Positions 38,246 to 45,975 of a stretch of 64,000 nucleotides of DNA are shown piece by piece (the first letter of the stretch is position 1; every line of letters starts with the position of its first letter). The notes below the pieces were generated by a model. That model was not told the DNA's origin and did not search any database. It saw nothing but the letters and a program-made list of their open reading frames with translations. The position numbers and the translations under genes are program-made. This stretch comes from an uncultured Dehalococcoidia bacterium (GTDB lineage Bacteria; Chloroflexota; Dehalococcoidia; SZUA-161), in contig CAZGDV010000002.1 of the NCBI GenBank assembly GCA_964524995.1, forward strand, positions 1,787 to 65,786. Direction: 5' to 3'.

Positions 38246-38794
38246 ATGAAGACCGTACGTACTATTATCACCGCCCTTGTAGTCACGATTGCCATCTGTG
38301 TGATGGCCGCTGGCCTGTCGTGCACTAGCGAGACACGTGAGATATCGCAAGCTGATCCGATCTCGCCCACTAAGGCGTATACCTCTGCAGTCATACCGAT
38401 ACTGACCTCCATTTCCTCCGCCAACAAGGTCTACCTGATGCCGATGGAACGCGCTCACCAACTCAGCGAGAGCAGTGCGCCGGGCGAATTCACCGCAATC
38501 CAAGAGGCGGCCACTCTGTACGCTGACGAGATAGCGAGATGCCGTGAGCAGTGGAACGAGATCAGCCCTCCCGACGCACTCAGCAGGTTCCACGTTGACT
38601 ATGCCGGCTACCTCCAGGTCGAAGAGGATAGTGCCAAGCTCCTCGCTTTGAGCGTCCGGCTGCATGATCTGGACGGTGTGTCCATAGCGATGGATATCAG
38701 GGACGACAACTTCGAGTGGCTGAAGGACTGTCTGGAGCAATTCGAAGCGACTACCACCATCCCGGACATGGGTGACGACGACCTCATCCTCTGA
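38246..38794 (+). CDS. Hypothetical secreted/lipoprotein-like protein
   Basis: 182 aa. N-terminal signal-like TM ending AAGLSC (non-canonical lipobox). No family recognised. Confidence 0.55.
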   Translation: MKTVRTIITALVVTIAICVMAAGLSCTSETREISQADPISPTKAYTSAVIPILTSISSANKVYLMPMERAHQLSESSAPGEFTAIQEAATLYADEIARCREQWNEISPPDALSRFHVDYAGYLQVEEDSAKLLALSVRLHDLDGVSIAMDIRDDNFEWLKDCLEQFEATTTIPDMGDDDLIL

Positions 38795-39160: not shown

Positions 39161-39964
39161 ATGAATGTTGCCCAGTTTCGCAAGTCGCGATCCGGTGTAC
39201 TCCTCTTAGCCCTCACTCTCGTTTCCGCTCTCACCTTGCTCGTGGCTGGTTGCAGCACCGGCCCGGAAACGAGCGAGACATACACATTCAATGTCGGTGA
39301 GATGGCCAAGCTCGTGGTGACCGCTGACAACACCCAGGTGGACATCCAGGCCCAACCGGGCGGCAACATAACCGTACAGGCAACGCTGCGCCGCGCCGAC
39401 GACCTGACCTACGAGTTATCCCAGGACGGCAACACCGTCACCATCGACATCGACATCGAGGGCGCAGGGTTCATCGGCGAGAGCCCCGGCGCGGAGCTTG
39501 ACATAACCGTCCCGCCGCAGACGGAACTCGATATCCGCACATCCAACGGCGCGGTTAACGGCAACGGTACGCACGGCATCGCCAAGGTGGAGACGTCGAA
39601 CGGCAAGATCGAGTTCAAGAACGCGAGCGGCGATTTCGACCTCAGGACCAGCAACGGCAGCCTGAACCTGTCGGACTTCTCAGGCCAGGTTGACGGCGAG
39701 ACGAGCAACGGCCGGATCGAGTTCGAGGGCAACCTGACTGACGGGTCGGAGAACCGCCTCACAACGAGTAATGGCAGAATAGACGTAGAGTTCGATGCCG
39801 AGCCCAACATCGACCTGGACGCCGAGACGAGCAACGGCGATATCGATTGCGACTTCCCCATCACGGCGACGGTGACCGGCGACGACCGCCTGGTCGGCAC
39901 GATCGGCGCCGGCGGCACGAAGCTGGACCTGAGCACGAGCAACGGCGACATAACGATCAGGTAG
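39161..39964 (+). CDS. DUF4097-like beta-repeat lipoprotein (putative adhesin fold)
   Basis: Lipobox LLVAGC. Seven (E/T)TSNG(x)I(D/E) repeats typical of DUF4097. Confidence 0.75.
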   Translation: MNVAQFRKSRSGVLLLALTLVSALTLLVAGCSTGPETSETYTFNVGEMAKLVVTADNTQVDIQAQPGGNITVQATLRRADDLTYELSQDGNTVTIDIDIEGAGFIGESPGAELDITVPPQTELDIRTSNGAVNGNGTHGIAKVETSNGKIEFKNASGDFDLRTSNGSLNLSDFSGQVDGETSNGRIEFEGNLTDGSENRLTTSNGRIDVEFDAEPNIDLDAETSNGDIDCDFPITATVTGDDRLVGTIGAGGTKLDLSTSNGDITIR

Positions 39965-39980
39965 ACGCTCCACCATCCCT

Positions 39981-40035
39981 ATGTCCCAATGTCCGGGCTG
40001 CCAGATGTTCAGATGTCTGGCTGGCTACCCAGAGG
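39981..40035 (+). repeat. 8-bp-phased intergenic repeat cluster (strong copy)
   Basis: ATGTCCCA ATGTCCGG GCTGCCAG ATGTTCAG ATGTCTGG CTGGCTAC. Has a 22-nt identity with 61582-61603. Confidence 0.75.
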
Positions 40036-40184
40036 TAACATCTATCGAATCTTGACGCTTATGCTCGCCTAGAGTAGCATTGTGCCGGCATTCCCCGCTT
40101 GAAACCCGAGGACGAAGTGGATGTGTGCAAGGGCACGTGAGTGGGTGCGATTCTCATGACAGCTTTGCATTCAAGAGTGCTCCC

Positions 40185-41606
40185 ATGACGATACAACAAC
40201 AACCTGAGTTGGCCGATCTCTCCAGTCATGAAAGTGCGCACTCAGGCTATCGCGACACCTTAACACGTCTAATTAGGGGCGACCTAGACTTCCACGATGA
40301 CAACAGCCTGTACTCATCACACAACTTCCACCCGTTTCCCGCCAAGTTCCCCCCACAGCTCCCACGCCTATTCATCGAGCAACTGACTAAGCCAAACGAT
40401 GTCGTTTTGGACCCCATGATGGGGTCAGGCACTACCGTGCTTGAAGCCTATCTCGCGGGAAGACGTGCGATCGGCCTGGATATAGACCCGCTAGCAATTA
40501 CGATATCGAACGTCAAAACGACCCCCTACGACAAGAACGAGCTAATCGAGTTGACAAAAGTCATAGTCGCCAAAGCCCGTGAGTCGGTGGGACACCGCCG
40601 AACGGAGCTAGAGAGCGCTCTTCAGTCAGGTTTCGACGCGCCAACGCGGCGATTCCTTGACACATGGTTTCCGAAAGACACTCAACTGGAACTCCTTGCA
40701 CTCATTCAGGAGACAGAAAGGGAGACAGATCATTCCACGAGATCCTTCTTTGAATTGGCGTTTTCGGGGGTTATCATTACGAAGTCCGGCGGGGTATCCT
40801 ACGCACTCGACTTAGCGCACACACGGCCGCACAGAGCCAAGTTGGTTCTCGACATGTCCGGCAGAGTGCTCCTCGGTCATCGTGCACTTGGAGTCGCCAG
40901 TTCAGAACGCGATAGGCTCCTGACCAAGACAATCCGTTCTGCTATTGAAGAGTTCGAGAGGCGAGTGTTCAACAATCTCAAGGGTGTTCTGGATAGAAGC
41001 AGTGGCTTCCCCAAGCCCTACGTCACGTTCGGAGACGCGAGGAGCCTGTCCCTGGACGAGAACTCGGTCGACCTGATTGTCACTTCGCCCCCCTACGCAT
41101 CCAATGCCATAGACTACATGAGGGCTCACAAGTTCGCTCTCGTGTGGATGGGGTACTCAATAGCCGAGCTCAGCGAGCGACGTCGGGAGTATATCGGTAG
41201 CGAGGTCATTCAGGGCGCAGACCTAGTCGACTTCCCGTCTCGAACGACCGCGGTCATCGAAGATATATCGGTCGTCGATGCACGGAAGGGGCTCGTCTTG
41301 CGACACTACTATTCGGAGATGGCATTGGTGTTGAGGGAGATGCTTCGAGTACTGAAGCCCGGGAAGGCTGCTATCGTCGTTGTGGGTAGCTCCCTCATGC
41401 GCGGACGGGATACGCAGACAGGCGATTGTCTTGCAGAAATAGGCGCGCGCCTAGGCTTAGATGTCGTGGCCGTGGGAACCCGGAGCCTCGACCGCAATCG
41501 CAGAATGCTGCCGGCTGGTCACCGAGTTGACCCTAGTTCGCAGATCCAGCAACGGATGCACAAGGAACAGGTGATCGCTTTCTGCAAACCTGCCCAGCGA
41601 AGTTGA
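40185..41606 (+). CDS. Type II DNA methyltransferase (amino-MTase, SPPY catalytic motif; probably N4-cytosine or N6-adenine)
   Basis: Motif I LDPMMGSGTTVLEA and, about 220 aa later, motif IV IVTSPPYASN (alpha-type order). ATG 40185 is preferred. Confidence 0.85.
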   Translation: MTIQQQPELADLSSHESAHSGYRDTLTRLIRGDLDFHDDNSLYSSHNFHPFPAKFPPQLPRLFIEQLTKPNDVVLDPMMGSGTTVLEAYLAGRRAIGLDIDPLAITISNVKTTPYDKNELIELTKVIVAKARESVGHRRTELESALQSGFDAPTRRFLDTWFPKDTQLELLALIQETERETDHSTRSFFELAFSGVIITKSGGVSYALDLAHTRPHRAKLVLDMSGRVLLGHRALGVASSERDRLLTKTIRSAIEEFERRVFNNLKGVLDRSSGFPKPYVTFGDARSLSLDENSVDLIVTSPPYASNAIDYMRAHKFALVWMGYSIAELSERRREYIGSEVIQGADLVDFPSRTTAVIEDISVVDARKGLVLRHYYSEMALVLREMLRVLKPGKAAIVVVGSSLMRGRDTQTGDCLAEIGARLGLDVVAVGTRSLDRNRRMLPAGHRVDPSSQIQQRMHKEQVIAFCKPAQRS

Positions 41607-41627: not shown

Positions 41628-42485
41628 ATGAGCATATCTCAACTGCGCCGAGAGTACCACGAGCGTATCTGCGCTGAGATAATCAGAGTCACTGAGAATA
41701 AGAGTGTAACATACCCCAACTTCGCTGATGGCAGCAACAAGTCGAGTCGCGATATCGCTTGGGCAATCACGAGGCTTCTAGGCCACAGGCCCCAACAAGA
41801 GAGGATCGATGGTCAAACAGTGGGTGATCGATTTGAGTTGGCAACGCGAGATTTCCTAGAGTCTGCATTCCTTCTCCTGGAGCACATCCGCCCCGGTAAA
41901 TGGATGTACCAAGTTAAGACAGCTATATCGAAGTTCTACCAGTTCGAGCATCTTCGGTATCTGGAAGAGGTTGTGAAAAGTGACAAAGTGCTCTCATCAG
42001 CCTTTGGCGGTGACTACATCGTCAAGCCCGACATTGTTGTCGGAAGGTATCCTGTGACAGATAAGGAGGTCAACAGCCATCATGTGCTTGTTCGCAGGCA
42101 AGACAAAGTGGCGAAGTTGACACCCCTGCGAGTTCAAAATCAGAAGGATGCTCTTCCTCTACTTCATGCCAGCATCTCCTGCAAGTGGACCATCCGAAGC
42201 GACAGGTCGCAGAACACGCGAACAGAGGCTCTCAACCTCATCCGGAACCGCAAGGGCCATTTGCCCCACATAGTCGCGGTCACGGCCGAACCCTTGCCCT
42301 CTCGCCTAGCAACCCTAGCGCTAGGCACCGGCGACCTCGACTGCGTATACCACTTCGCGCTCCCCGAATTGTGCTCATCAATCGAAGACTTGGACAACCA
42401 AGACCAACTGGACATGCTCCGAATCCTAATGGATGGTCGGCGCTTGCGTGACATCAGCGACTTGCCATTCGATCTAGCGATCTAA
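41628..42485 (+). CDS. NgoMIV/Cfr10I-family Type II restriction endonuclease
   Basis: 285 aa. VKPDIVV and SISCKWTIRSDRSQN match the PD...(S)xK catalytic motif and the R-S-D-R CCGG-recognition motif as I recall them for NgoMIV. Confidence 0.75.
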   Translation: MSISQLRREYHERICAEIIRVTENKSVTYPNFADGSNKSSRDIAWAITRLLGHRPQQERIDGQTVGDRFELATRDFLESAFLLLEHIRPGKWMYQVKTAISKFYQFEHLRYLEEVVKSDKVLSSAFGGDYIVKPDIVVGRYPVTDKEVNSHHVLVRRQDKVAKLTPLRVQNQKDALPLLHASISCKWTIRSDRSQNTRTEALNLIRNRKGHLPHIVAVTAEPLPSRLATLALGTGDLDCVYHFALPELCSSIEDLDNQDQLDMLRILMDGRRLRDISDLPFDLAI

Positions 42486-42581: not shown

Positions 42582-43253
42582 GTGATCAATCGCAAGGATG
42601 TCAAAGTCGAGCGCCGCAGGGTCAAGAGCGGACGTATCATGGTCCATCCCGACCTGCGGATCGAACTCATCGTCCCGCTCCGCACCTCGAACGCCGAGAT
42701 CGATGAGATCATCCGCCACAAGTCGAAGTGGATCGAGAAGAAGCTGCGCTACTTCAGGCACAGGAAGACCCTGGGCGTGCAGCTCAAGCGGGGCGAGGTC
42801 CTGCTGTACGGCGAGGTCTATAGGTTCCGGCCCGTCCCCGAGCTCGGTCGGAAGGTGGCAGTCGATTCAAAGGGCAAGACGATATCCTCCGGCAGGGACT
42901 TGCTGGACGCCCACGTGCTGGAGGAATGGTACCGGGAGGAGGCCAGGAGAGTCATCTCGAAGCGGCTGCGCCACTATGCCAGGGAGTACGGTCTCCCGTA
43001 CAATAGAGTGTACATTCGCGGCCAGAAGACAAGATGGGGGAGCTGTTCGGCGAAGAAGAACCTCTCGTTCAACTGGCGTCTGGTCCAGGTCCCGCCGCGT
43101 ATTCTGGACTACGTAGTGGCCCACGAGTTGGTTCACGCGCAGCACTTCGACCACTCGGACGCCTTCTGGGAGCGGCTGGAAGGGGTATACCCCGAATACG
43201 AAGAGGCAAGGGAGTGGCTGGAGAACTACCACGCCTACCAGAGGCACTCGTAG
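42582..43253 (+). CDS. DUF45/YgjP-like (M48-related) zinc metallopeptidase
   Basis: 223 aa. RWGSCSAKKNLSFNWRL and DYVVAHELVHAQHFDHSDAFW (HExxH) motifs. Confidence 0.8.
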   Translation: MINRKDVKVERRRVKSGRIMVHPDLRIELIVPLRTSNAEIDEIIRHKSKWIEKKLRYFRHRKTLGVQLKRGEVLLYGEVYRFRPVPELGRKVAVDSKGKTISSGRDLLDAHVLEEWYREEARRVISKRLRHYAREYGLPYNRVYIRGQKTRWGSCSAKKNLSFNWRLVQVPPRILDYVVAHELVHAQHFDHSDAFWERLEGVYPEYEEAREWLENYHAYQRHS

Positions 43254-43277
43254 CGGGCGATTCGGCGAATCGCCCGC
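43253..43277 (+). terminator. Strong hairpin at the end of the DUF45 gene
   Basis: GCGGGCGATTC-GGC-GAATCGCCCGC, an 11-bp perfect stem starting at the stop codon. No T-tract. Confidence 0.45.
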
Positions 43278-43330
43278 AGATGCACACAACCGAGACAGTG
43301 TCAAGCAGGACTTGCCATTCGCAACATTAT

Positions 43331-43369
43331 GTGACAACATTTGACAACATGTGACAACACTGATATAAT
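43331..43369 (+). promoter_or_regulatory. Consensus promoter overlapping a 3x10-bp tandem operator-like repeat
   Basis: GTGACAACAT TTGACAACAT GTGACAACAC (43331-43360). TTGACA(43341)-17 nt-TATAAT(43364) with a TG extension (43361-62). Confidence 0.7.
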
Positions 43370-43379
43370 AATACCAGAC

Positions 43380-44477
43380 ATGGTAGAGTACCTGACAATA
43401 CCTGAAGCGGCCACGCGACTCCACGTGACAAGGCAAACGGTCTACAGGTGGATCAAGGAGGGCCGAATCGATCCCGTGTGGACTCCGGGAGGAAGCTACA
43501 GGGTACCTGACGACCAGTTGATCCAATCAGCGGCAACCCCACCCTCCAGAACGTACAATGACAGGAAGATTTTCCCAGTCACCAACATATCAGAATTCGA
43601 ACCAGAAATCATTGAGCAGCTGGGCACGAAGTTCAAGTTCTGGTACAGAACGCAGGTGGGAAAACGAGTGCTATTCAAGGAAGGACGACCAGGAACAGGC
43701 GAGAATTGGGCGGAGAAGGCAGCGAGCGAGCTGTGCGGACTGCTCGGTTTGCCGCACGTACCCTATGAACTGGCGGTGTGGAAGGGAAAGGAAGGCGTTG
43801 TCTGTGATGATTTCGAACCACCCGGCGGAAGACTTGTGCACGGCAACGAACTCCTGGCCTTAAGAGAAGATGCCTACGACAGAGACAAGCGCTATCGGCA
43901 GGGGCAGCATACCCTCAGGCTCGTATTGGATACGATTCGTGACGAGGTTCTTGAAGTCCCTCTGGACTGGAATCCATTCGATATCATCGAATCTCCCATT
44001 GATGTATTCGTTGGCTATCTGATGCTCGACACATGGATCGCGAACCAGGACCGGCATCACCAAAACTGGGGACTCGTTCTGACCAAGGATCAGGTCACTC
44101 ACCTCGCTCCATCCTTCGACCACGCCTCCAGTCTCGGCAGGAACGAGTCGGACGACGTCCGAAAAGAAAGGCTAGTCACCAAGGACAAAGCGCGAAGCAT
44201 CGAGAGATATGTTGAGAAAGCCAGGTCGGCGTTCTATGCATCGCCAGAATCGGCAAGACCGATGTTCACGATCGAGGCTTTTGAAATGGCTGCTATGCAG
44301 AGCAGGGACGCCGCCCGCTCATGGCTCGGGCGGTTGGAGCAAGTGGCTAGCGCAGATACTATGTCAGTATTCGAGCGCATTCCTGACACGAAGATCACAC
44401 CTGCGGCCGTGGAGTTCGCCCAGCACATGCTCGAGCTGAACCGCGAGCGACTACTGGGCCTCAGAAAGGGGCTATGA
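43380..44477 (+). CDS. Excisionase-type HTH fused to a HipA-like Ser/Thr kinase
   Basis: LTIPEAATRLHVTRQTVYRWIKEG HTH. Kinase core QLGTKFKFWY, LDTWIANQDRHHQNWGL, LAPSFDHASSLG. ATG 43380 is only about 10 nt past the -10. Confidence 0.8.
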   Translation: MVEYLTIPEAATRLHVTRQTVYRWIKEGRIDPVWTPGGSYRVPDDQLIQSAATPPSRTYNDRKIFPVTNISEFEPEIIEQLGTKFKFWYRTQVGKRVLFKEGRPGTGENWAEKAASELCGLLGLPHVPYELAVWKGKEGVVCDDFEPPGGRLVHGNELLALREDAYDRDKRYRQGQHTLRLVLDTIRDEVLEVPLDWNPFDIIESPIDVFVGYLMLDTWIANQDRHHQNWGLVLTKDQVTHLAPSFDHASSLGRNESDDVRKERLVTKDKARSIERYVEKARSAFYASPESARPMFTIEAFEMAAMQSRDAARSWLGRLEQVASADTMSVFERIPDTKITPAAVEFAQHMLELNRERLLGLRKGL

Positions 44478-45250
44478 TGAAAACGCTCTACCTCGCATGG
44501 CAAGACCCGGTCGACCGCATGTGGAGGACCGTCGGGCGCTTGACATTAGACAATGGCAAGTACAAGTTCGTCTACACTAAGGGCGCGAAGAATGCCCCTC
44601 GGTTCTCGACCTTTGGCGGCATGAAGAAACTGGATCAGCCCTACGAGTCAACTGAGTTGTTCCCCGTATTCGCGAATAGGCTGTTGTCGGAACGACGCCC
44701 CGAGTATGAGGACTATCTGAAGTGGGCAAACTTGAGCCGCCATGATATCACAGGGGTTCTGTCTGCAACTGGTGGCAAACGAGTCACGGATTCTTTCAGG
44801 GTATTCCCAAAACCAGAGCCGACGCCTGAGGAGAGATATGAAGTCACATTCTTCGCCCACGGCCTCCGCTACTTCCCCGAGGAAGCGAGGCGGCGTGTCG
44901 ATGCTCTTCAAGCAGGCGAAAGGCTCTACCTCATGCCTGATCCGCAGAACGAATATGATCCAATGGCAATCCTCCTCCGCACAGGCGATCCCCTATTCTT
45001 GGCAGGTTACTGTCCGAGGTTTTTTGCGACCGACTTCAAGCAGTTGCTTCAATTGAACCCCGACCAACCGGCAGTTGTGGTGATCCGGGTCAACCGAGAC
45101 GCGCCTCTCCAGATGCGTTTATTGTGCAGACTGTCCTCGCCGTGGCCTGCGGGCTTCGAAACCTGCAGCGGAGAGGAGTACAAGCCGCTTGTTGAGGAAC
45201 CGACAGTCGTAGGGAGAGTTCAGCCATGGAAATGGACACAGAAGACATAG
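44474..45250 (+). CDS. HipS-like (HipA N-subdomain-like) + HIRAN domain protein
   Basis: ATGA overlap with the kinase. ELFPVFANRLLSERRPEYEDYL is HipA-N-like. GERLYLMPDPQNEYDPMAILLRTGDPLFLAGYCPR is HIRAN-like. Confidence 0.7.
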   Translation: MMKTLYLAWQDPVDRMWRTVGRLTLDNGKYKFVYTKGAKNAPRFSTFGGMKKLDQPYESTELFPVFANRLLSERRPEYEDYLKWANLSRHDITGVLSATGGKRVTDSFRVFPKPEPTPEERYEVTFFAHGLRYFPEEARRRVDALQAGERLYLMPDPQNEYDPMAILLRTGDPLFLAGYCPRFFATDFKQLLQLNPDQPAVVVIRVNRDAPLQMRLLCRLSSPWPAGFETCSGEEYKPLVEEPTVVGRVQPWKWTQKT

Positions 45251-45771
45251 TGCAACGTGCCCACCAACTCGGAATCCATACGTGCATCGAGTTCGACCCG
45301 GGCCTCCTGACCCCCGAGGAGCGGATACGGGAAATATGCCATGGTAACAAGTGCGGTAACTACAGGGTACACTACATGTGCCCGCCCCACGTCGGGTCGC
45401 TGGAGGACGCCGAGCGCCGCTTCGGAGAGTTCAAGAGGGGCGTGCTGCTCCAGTACTCGGAGGCTCTCGACGTGACGACAGACATCGAAGGGCTCTTGCG
45501 AGCGAAGATGGAGCTCCATACACGCGTGCTGCAGATGGAAGAGTACCTGCGCAGCAGGGGCCTGGCCAACGCCTGGGGCTTGATCGGCGGGTCCTGCTGG
45601 CTGTGCTACCCATGTAAGGCCAGGTCGGGCGAGCCCTGCCCTCATCCGGAGGCAGCCAGGCCCTCCCCCGAGGCTTTCGGCGTCGACGTCATGGCCCTCC
45701 TGGGCAAGCTCGGCCTCGACAACCAGTTCCACTCCGACCGGGTAACCTGGACAGGTTGCGTCCTATTCTGA
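45226..45771 (+). CDS. DUF2284-like Cys-rich metal-binding protein
   Basis: 181 aa. CHGNKCGNY...YMCPP and GGSCWLCYPCKA...CPHPE motifs. 25-nt overlap with the upstream gene. Confidence 0.65.
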   Translation: MEMDTEDIVQRAHQLGIHTCIEFDPGLLTPEERIREICHGNKCGNYRVHYMCPPHVGSLEDAERRFGEFKRGVLLQYSEALDVTTDIEGLLRAKMELHTRVLQMEEYLRSRGLANAWGLIGGSCWLCYPCKARSGEPCPHPEAARPSPEAFGVDVMALLGKLGLDNQFHSDRVTWTGCVLF

Positions 45772-45857: not shown

Positions 45858-45975
45858 GCAACGGCTCTGCGACGTTCAGCTGTCTGGCTGTTCAGCCGTC
45901 CCAACGATGGTACGTTGACTCACGCGACCGCCGTATTGTAGGATACGTCGAGTGCGACGGCTGTCTGCGAGAGGT
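45858..45975 (+). repeat. 8-bp-phased intergenic repeat cluster
   Basis: TGCGACGT TCAGCTGT CTGGCTGT TCAGCCGT CCCAACGA TGGTACGT TGACTCAC ... Confidence 0.55.

Follow-up and report, generated by a model that had tools for sequence, protein, structure and literature searches.

Among the modules built around kinases of the HipA family, those described as hipIN come closest to the locus considered here. hipIN was defined by Gerdes, Baerentsen and Brodersen from 14 modules, with HipI as a core-only kinase of 279-321 amino acids (aa), and the authors proposed that the HIRAN domain of HipN senses the ends of phage DNA and activates the kinase (Gerdes et al., mBio 2021; PMC8262856). PADLOC lists PDC-M03, an unpublished and unvalidated phage-defense candidate, and the operon of a HIRAN protein and a HipA-like kinase was still termed uninvestigated in 2025 (PMC11706625). 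The locus in question lies on a stretch of 64,000 nucleotides (nt) from an uncultured Dehalococcoidia bacterium (assembly GCA_964524995.1, contig CAZGDV010000002.1, positions 1,787 to 65,786 of the forward strand; the whole stretch is called the window), and comprises a kinase gene fused to an HTH_17 domain and, behind it, a hipN-type gene. A first-pass annotation of this DNA had stated that operons of a kinase and a HipS-HIRAN protein are catalogued and uncharacterized, and hipIN (PMC8262856) and PDC-M03 (PADLOC) bear this statement out.

The sequence makes it almost certain that the window module is a hipIN module, equal to PDC-M03. Like hipIN, it pairs a small HipA-homologous kinase without N-subdomain 1 with a downstream gene for a HipS-like plus HIRAN protein, in the same gene order, and its PDC-M03A and PDC-M03B genes are adjacent, as in the PADLOC definition, with an overlap of 4 nt. 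It differs from hipIN in that the kinase reaches 365 aa through an N-terminal HTH_17 helix-turn-helix (HTH) domain and a linker, which places it outside the core-only size range of HipI, and in that its promoter carries 10-bp repeats and a near-leaderless start, neither of which appears in the description by Gerdes et al. The available portion of their hipIN supplementary text yielded no Chloroflexi module. Our preferred reading, to which we assign a probability of about 0.6, is that the module is a hipIN/PDC-M03 variant in which the kinase gained an N-terminal winged HTH of the excisionase/BldC type, and that this kinase is a self-repressed, probably leaderless toxin neutralized by HipN. What is new here is the HTH_17 fusion, the direct-repeat operator, and the near-leaderless promoter, of which the literature searched held no description; the module type and the functional model have already been published as predictions.

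Several other HipA-family systems share parts of this design. HipBST of E. coli O127 (structures 7AB3-7AB5) also features a kinase without N-subdomain 1, a HipS-like protein acting in trans, and an HTH function within the system. However, HipBST is encoded by three genes, whereas the window module has two; its HipB is a separate protein of the XRE type, whereas the window HTH is of the excisionase type and fused to the kinase; and its HipS lacks the HIRAN domain to which the HipS-like domain of the window is joined. The window kinase is also nearer to CtkA and clade XI than to HipT. HipH/YjjJ of E. coli K-12 likewise has an N-terminal HTH on a HipA-family kinase, but YjjJ is monocistronic, has no HipS or HIRAN partner, and belongs to clade X rather than clade XI. 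The NCBIfam YjjJ model NF007297, which has a cut-off of 401 bits, gives the window kinase 12.6 bits, and the HTH-kinase fusion of HipH/YjjJ is independent of the one in the window. HipL contains the same kinase, HipS-like, and HIRAN parts, although as one fused monocistronic polypeptide (PMC8262856), while the window splits them over two genes and adds the HTH.

The HTH-fused kinase and HipN

The kinase gene occupies the open reading frame (ORF) 43380-44477 (+), with 365 codons for amino acids. Its start codon is secure, because the HTH_17 domain begins at residue 4 (aa 4-47, 43389-43520). Pfam HTH_17 (PF12728) matches with an E-value of 3.8e-12 and 46.7 bits (cut-off 27), and the excisionase-family model TIGR01764 with 43.2 bits (cut-off 28.8). 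The BldC subfamily model reaches 31.3 bits, far under its cut-off of 77, so the domain is no BldC ortholog. A profile of the family searched against the PDB matched the BldC-DNA structures 6AMK and 6AMA (E 0.003), and R18, Q19, Y22, and W24 in the recognition helix show no variation. A linker at aa 49-61, disordered in the predicted structure, leads to the kinase core at aa 64-365 (43569-44474).

By sequence and predicted structure, the product of the first gene is a small kinase of the HipA/CtkA fold. The core carries a Gly-rich-loop equivalent (EQLGTKFKFW, aa 79-88), the invariant K100, a catalytic ANQDRHHQNW motif (D224, N229), and an Mg-binding motif LAPSFDHASSLG (D247), and lacks the HipA N-subdomain 1. 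Across 31 kinase homologs, EQLGTKxKFW, K100, ANQDRHHxNW, and LAPSxDHASSLG are invariant or almost so. The PADLOC model PDC-M03A covers aa 65-361 (E 1e-116). The AlphaFold model has a mean pLDDT (predicted local distance difference test score) of 90.4, with disorder confined to the linker, and its best PDB fold match is the HipA-like kinase CtkA of H. pylori (E 5e-13, template modeling score (TM) 0.77), followed in order by Legionella HipT, E. coli HipA, and E. coli HipT. No solved protein is closer than CtkA by structure or by sequence, and hhalign pairs D224/N229/D247 with D309/N314/D332 of E. coli HipA. The first-pass annotation had described this ORF as an excisionase/MerR-type HTH joined to a HipA_C-like kinase, a description with which the HTH_17, PDC-M03A, and CtkA/HipT/HipA fold matches agree.

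The second gene, ORF 44474-45250 (+), is joined to the first by an ATGA overlap of 4 nt and encodes a HipN-type protein of 258 aa. One gene caller prefers the ATG at 44477, which gives 257 aa. An SD-like (Shine-Dalgarno-like) AAAGGGG, read from the sequence, lies inside the kinase gene at its 3′ end (44465-44471, +), 2 nt from the ATG at 44474 and 5 nt from that at 44477. The protein matches PADLOC PDC-M03B (E 9e-91). Its C-terminal part is a Pfam HIRAN domain at aa 124-218 (44843-45127; E 7e-11, 42.2 bits, cut-off 24.7), and the predicted model (pLDDT 89.4) shows the HIRAN fold in Foldseek, with lp_0118 (3k2y) at TM 0.73-0.78 and the HLTF HIRAN domain (4xzg/4s0n) at TM ~0.61; HLTF was absent from the profile-versus-PDB sequence search. 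The N-terminal domain (~aa 1-115, 44474-44818) resembles HipS: Pfam Couple_hipA (cut-off 22.5 bits) matches aa 18-101 with 22.7 bits and the domain taken alone with 24.8 bits, and 9 of 21 HipN homologs match at E <= 0.01. An early assignment of this ORF as a HipS-like region followed by HIRAN thus agrees with Pfam, both models passing their cut-offs, Couple_hipA marginally.

The last 15 aa of HipN are modeled with low confidence and do not align with homologs. A gene for a DUF2284 metal-binding protein (45226-45771, +) overlaps the final 25 nt of hipN, and the unaligned tail may be a product of this junction. DUF2284 was considered as a third gene of the operon and rejected, as it is absent beside hipIN in every other locus and its G+C content is host-like.

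Promoter and direct repeats in fused and unfused loci

The kinase gene of the window is preceded by operator-like direct repeats of 10 bp at 43320-43359 (+), namely a weak unit GCAACATTAT at 43320-43329 and the three strong tandem units GTGACAACAT, TTGACAACAT, and GTGACAACAC at 43330-43359; if the -35 element sets the register, the array ends at 43360. A repeat scan of the window returned the array with spacings of 10 and 10, and its 10-bp self-periodicity of 0.90 was equalled in 0 of 2000 shuffles. Elsewhere in the window the 10-mer has one single match with 1 mismatch, as chance would give. Overlapping the array is a sigma-70-type promoter (+) that scores 12/12 in the promoter scan, with a -35 TTGACA at 43341-43346, a spacer of 17 nt, and an extended -10 TGaTATAAT at 43361-43369 whose TG extension is present. 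The -35 hexamer is part of the second strong repeat unit. The ATG comes only 10 nt after the -10, with no SD-like 4-mer in between. Transcription is predicted to start near 43376-43377, which would leave a leader of ~3-4 nt. The repeats, promoter, ATGA overlap, ORFs, and short start spacing were all present where the first-pass annotation had placed them, and the promoter scan agrees with its view that the triple 10-mers overlap the promoter and that no room for an SD is left.

At least 11 distinct HTH-fused loci have this promoter design in common, and they were compared with 138 unfused loci (individual loci are given L numbers). Repeat units were anchored on the -35 TTGAC and counted at -20, -10, and +10 (33 units); the starts in L087, L088, and L118 were placed at the downstream ATG, which stands behind the -10 and agrees with the N-terminal alignment, and which in L087 yields the conserved ME.. 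N-terminus. All 11 fused loci have three to four direct repeats spaced by exactly 10 bp, with the consensus nT(G/T)AC(A/G)nnAn. In the non-anchor units, T2 is found in 30/33, A4 in 32/33, C5 in 30/33, and R6 in 32/33, and the bases behind this core are repeated inside one locus while differing among loci (ACAT in the window, AAAT in L005). Mean 10-bp self-periodicity is 0.75 in fused loci (n=11) versus 0.41 in unfused loci (n=138; Mann-Whitney p = 1e-8), and the periodicity of the fused loci was not found in the 138 unfused ones. A shift of 5 nt out of phase still holds half of the repeat motif, and a period scan and shuffles served as controls instead. Period 10 alone stands out in the scan from 6 to 15, and the observed periodicity was equalled in <=5 of 2000 shuffles for 8 of the 11 fused loci, and in 38 to 106 of 2000 for L088, L090, and L103.

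The position of the promoter within the array is conserved as well. In 11/11 fused loci the -35 hexamer is one repeat unit, and the spacer is 17-18 nt throughout. The -10 is a perfect TATAAT (6/6) in seven of the 11, matches at 5/6 positions in L088, L092, and L118, and is TACATT (4/6) in L103. The distance from the -10 to the start codon is 6-10 nt in 10/11 fused loci and 17 nt in L090. An SD-like 4-mer precedes the gene in 0/11 fused loci and in 25/138 unfused loci, for which start codons are approximate; the count does not set the two groups apart.

The HTH fusion occurs in a minority of a widespread family. The kinase family comprises 2449 clusters at 90% identity (E <= 1e-5) or 566 clusters at 50% identity (E <= 1e-30) and is found in Dehalococcoidia, Binatia, Nitrospira, Proteobacteria, Nostoc, and others. 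In 79/80 species genomes the kinase is followed directly by a HipN homolog, which answers the co-occurrence check proposed for the gene pair. Most kinases begin near window residue 64 and lack the HTH. Of the top 120 clusters at 90% identity ~65 have it, and these shrink to 2 of the top 150 at 50% identity; within the species-genome set, fused kinases occur in two Dehalococcoidia metagenome-assembled genomes (MAGs) only. A neighbor-joining tree of the kinase core sets fused and unfused proteins almost cleanly apart, with the window protein basal among the fused ones, and this sequence relationship points to one fusion event behind the HTH-kinases. The possibility that the fused HTH descends from a split upstream gene was rejected: no HTH_17-like ORF was found in the 1.5 kb that precede each of 145 unfused kinases, so the domain was added rather than split off.

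Some family members depart from the usual gene pair. The sole genome locus with a kinase but no HipN is L067 (2094-5954) of a Burkholderiales MAG, in which the kinase is preceded by a protein of 1286 aa with methyltransferase, PLD-like, helicase, DUF3427, and S24 peptidase domains. In the HTH-fused L005 (7114-8358) of the Dehalococcoidia MAG JAUWYX010000002.1, HipN has 414 aa, and its C-terminal extension shows a weak pPIWI_RE_REase match (24.4 bits, under the cut-off of 26.1). The HipN of L088 is likewise extended, to 365 aa. From their sequences, these extended proteins may be HipN-nuclease fusions.

Proposed mechanism and alternative explanations

HTH-mediated autoregulation through the repeat array is, on the sequence data, probable. 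The known proteins nearest to the window HTH are BldC and the lambda-type Xis proteins, which share the HTH_17 domain; the candidate sites of the window are tandem direct repeats, as are those that BldC binds. The window domain differs in being part of a kinase, whereas BldC and Xis stand alone as small proteins, and in its predicted sites, which read TTGACAnnAn where BldC has the repeat consensus AATTnnnn(C). BldC assembles on direct repeats as head-to-tail multimers (PMC5859096), and because it is the nearest solved HTH, autorepression through the array is the best-supported part of our proposal. Several HTH domains would occupy the repeats head-to-tail in the fashion of BldC and Xis, and this occupancy would block RNA polymerase, such that the kinase represses its own promoter. 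The kinase mRNA would be leaderless or nearly so, and hipN would be translated via coupling and its own SD. In HipBST, DNA binding falls to HipB; here the kinase itself would thereby take on this role. HipB is an XRE/Cro-type dimer that binds palindromes. The earlier suggestion that a HipB-like function is fused to the kinase can be kept as far as a DNA-binding and autoregulatory role is meant, with repeats occurring in the fused loci only, but not as to the type of domain, which is excisionase/BldC-like, or the sites, which are direct repeats.

Both toxin-antitoxin behavior and a defense triggered by DNA ends are held with moderate to low confidence. Binding of HIRAN to free DNA 3′ ends, arising from phage DNA, replication intermediates, or damage, would release the kinase, which would then phosphorylate an essential translation factor and arrest the cell; by analogy with HipA and HipT, the targets would be aminoacyl-tRNA synthetases. 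The first-pass annotation had suggested abortive infection triggered by DNA ends; the model stands as a proposal but is not new, as it had been published by Gerdes et al. A further-reaching version, which we regard as doubtful, would turn the module into an autonomous switch under the control of DNA ends. At rest, a kinase-HipN complex would be polymerized head-to-tail on the repeats and keep its own leaderless promoter off; 3′ ends from injected or replicating phage DNA or from cleavage by the adjacent restriction enzyme would capture the HIRAN domain of HipN, freeing the kinase to phosphorylate its target and derepressing the operon, so that restriction-modification (R-M) cleavage would feed a second-line abortive response.

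Against the reading of the module as a self-repressed toxin with a HipS-like, DNA-end-sensing antitoxin stand a number of observations. The literature searched contains no experiment on a hipIN module; a hit for HIRAN in the Millman preprint came from the author name Hirano. The HipS-like label of the HipN N-domain is marginal, based on Couple_hipA of Pfam/TIGRFAM and on Gerdes et al.: a profile of the domain matched no PDB sequence even at E <= 10, hhalign placed it on a wrong region of E. coli HipA (E 0.046) rather than on the HipA N-terminus, and the fold search with the whole HipN model matched the HIRAN half alone. HIRAN could be a DNA-binding co-repressor instead of a sensor. The transcription start is a prediction, and part of the repeat signal could reflect duplication of the promoter, given that each unit holds a -35-like TTGACA. 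In the kinase, the catalytic loop has Q228 where most homologs have Glu and HipA has Lys, and Pfam HipA_C scores aa 207-277 at 25.4 bits, under its cut-off of 30.5. This last score is of no concern because of the PDC-M03A match, the invariant motifs, the quality and fold matches of the model, and the loop alignment with HipA; the proposed check by profile and structure thus came out below threshold for HipA_C, yet with structural matches to CtkA, HipT, and HipA.

The same data can be set against other functions of the module. Were its sole function addiction (post-segregational killing), by which the island of R-M system and hipIN is stabilized, HipN would be a labile antitoxin whose HIRAN domain, as a co-repressor, would help the HTH-kinase onto its operator, and neither phage nor DNA ends would be sensed. 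The lower-G+C block that hipIN shares with the R-M system and the occurrence of hipIN on plasmids and a prophage-like element would suit this role, and autoregulation by toxin-antitoxin complexes is common in type II systems, HipB-HipA among them (general knowledge; PMC8262856). However, solved HIRAN domains bind DNA ends and not specific duplex sites (PMC8262856), and HIRAN is not tied to the operator, because unfused hipIN loci retain it without repeats or HTH, which leaves pure addiction an unlikely account. The HTH might also have no regulatory part, and either tether the kinase to DNA or a DNA-bound substrate or act as a cis-inhibitory domain, as suggested for HipH/YjjJ, with the repeats serving as promoter or UP-like elements. 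The unassigned role of the N-terminal HTH in HipH/YjjJ, the -35-like hexamer inside each repeat, and the flexible linker between HTH and kinase speak for it. Nonetheless, we give it a slim chance: the repeats track the fusion (11/11 fused versus 0/138 unfused loci, at a periodicity >= 0.8 or comparable levels), positions beyond the hexamer, such as the ACAT of the window and the AAAT of L005, repeat within loci too, and the four recognition-helix residues do not vary.

Equally improbable in our view is that the kinase is a signaling or effector kinase like CtkA of H. pylori and no growth-arresting toxin, with HipN as a regulator or substrate linked to DNA repair. CtkA is the closest solved protein by structure and sequence, and descriptions of it speak of a proinflammatory kinase that is secreted, not of a toxin of a toxin-antitoxin system. 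The tight coupling with a HipS-like partner, the embedding in R-M operons and defense islands, and the PADLOC listing of the pair as a defense candidate speak against this account.

Genomic neighborhood and significance

In the window, where a type II R-M system lies upstream, hipIN follows an N4/N6 DNA methyltransferase gene (40080-41606, +; gene callers place its start later, giving 473 aa), an NgoMIV-family restriction endonuclease gene (41628-42485, +), and a gene for a YgjP-like metallopeptidase (42582-43253, +). The block from methyltransferase to hipIN has a G+C content of 0.51-0.57, against 0.60-0.63 in its flanks. In other genomes, ~15 loci have hipIN placed 2-25 nt behind HsdS, HsdR, HsdM, or Type ISP genes. 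Directly downstream of the fused hipIN of L087 (5953-8816) are SMODS nucleotidyltransferase and ThiF/E1-like genes, similar to CBASS (antiphage signaling by means of cyclic oligonucleotides). hipIN adjoins an integrase in L166 (3932-5646; PQ189286.1, Vibrio phage 10N.222.46.E12_PE001), a Vinavirales (tectivirus-like) element 14.6 kb long from Vibrio cyclitrophicus in which the pair is annotated only as hypothetical proteins, and it is also found on a Nostoc plasmid. These neighborhoods fit a role in defense or on mobile elements without proving it. The defense setting beside an R-M system that had been read from the window is thus matched by the many loci with R-M genes upstream and by the prophage-like element.

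hipIN/PDC-M03 is a large family, often inside R-M operons and mobile elements, and the variant with the fused HTH gives a practical way into it, with a defined putative operator, a consensus promoter, a predicted leaderless transcript, and three separable predicted activities (DNA binding, kinase, and HipS/HIRAN partner). If HIRAN does sense DNA ends, it would open a new route by which these trigger a kinase toxin, and that hipIN so often stands right behind restriction genes hints that cleavage of DNA and activation of the kinase are functionally linked.

Further features surround the module in the window. Right behind the stop of the YgjP-like gene, a GC-rich hairpin, GCGGGCGATTC-GGC-GAATCGCCCGC, was read from the sequence at 43255-43279 (+); it has no T-tract and was for that reason missed by the terminator scan. 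It is a possible transcript boundary, in which case hipIN would be its own transcription unit. Rfam and transfer RNA scans gave no match inside the hipIN module. A YgjP-like gene also lies just upstream of hipIN in the gammaproteobacterial L024 (5206-5853), its product being 27% identical. A 20-nt direct repeat (18/20 identical) at 40004-40023 and 45871-45890 encloses the block from the methyltransferase to DUF2284; the two copies could be island boundary repeats, at a rough chance expectation of ~0.04, and the lower-G+C stretch stops near 45200, short of the copy at 45871-45890. Farther upstream, a cyclic-di-GMP-II riboswitch (RF01786; 38111-38194, +; 68.8 bits, E 2.6e-13) precedes ORF 38246-38794 (182 aa), behind which a DUF4097 gene is found at 39161-39964.

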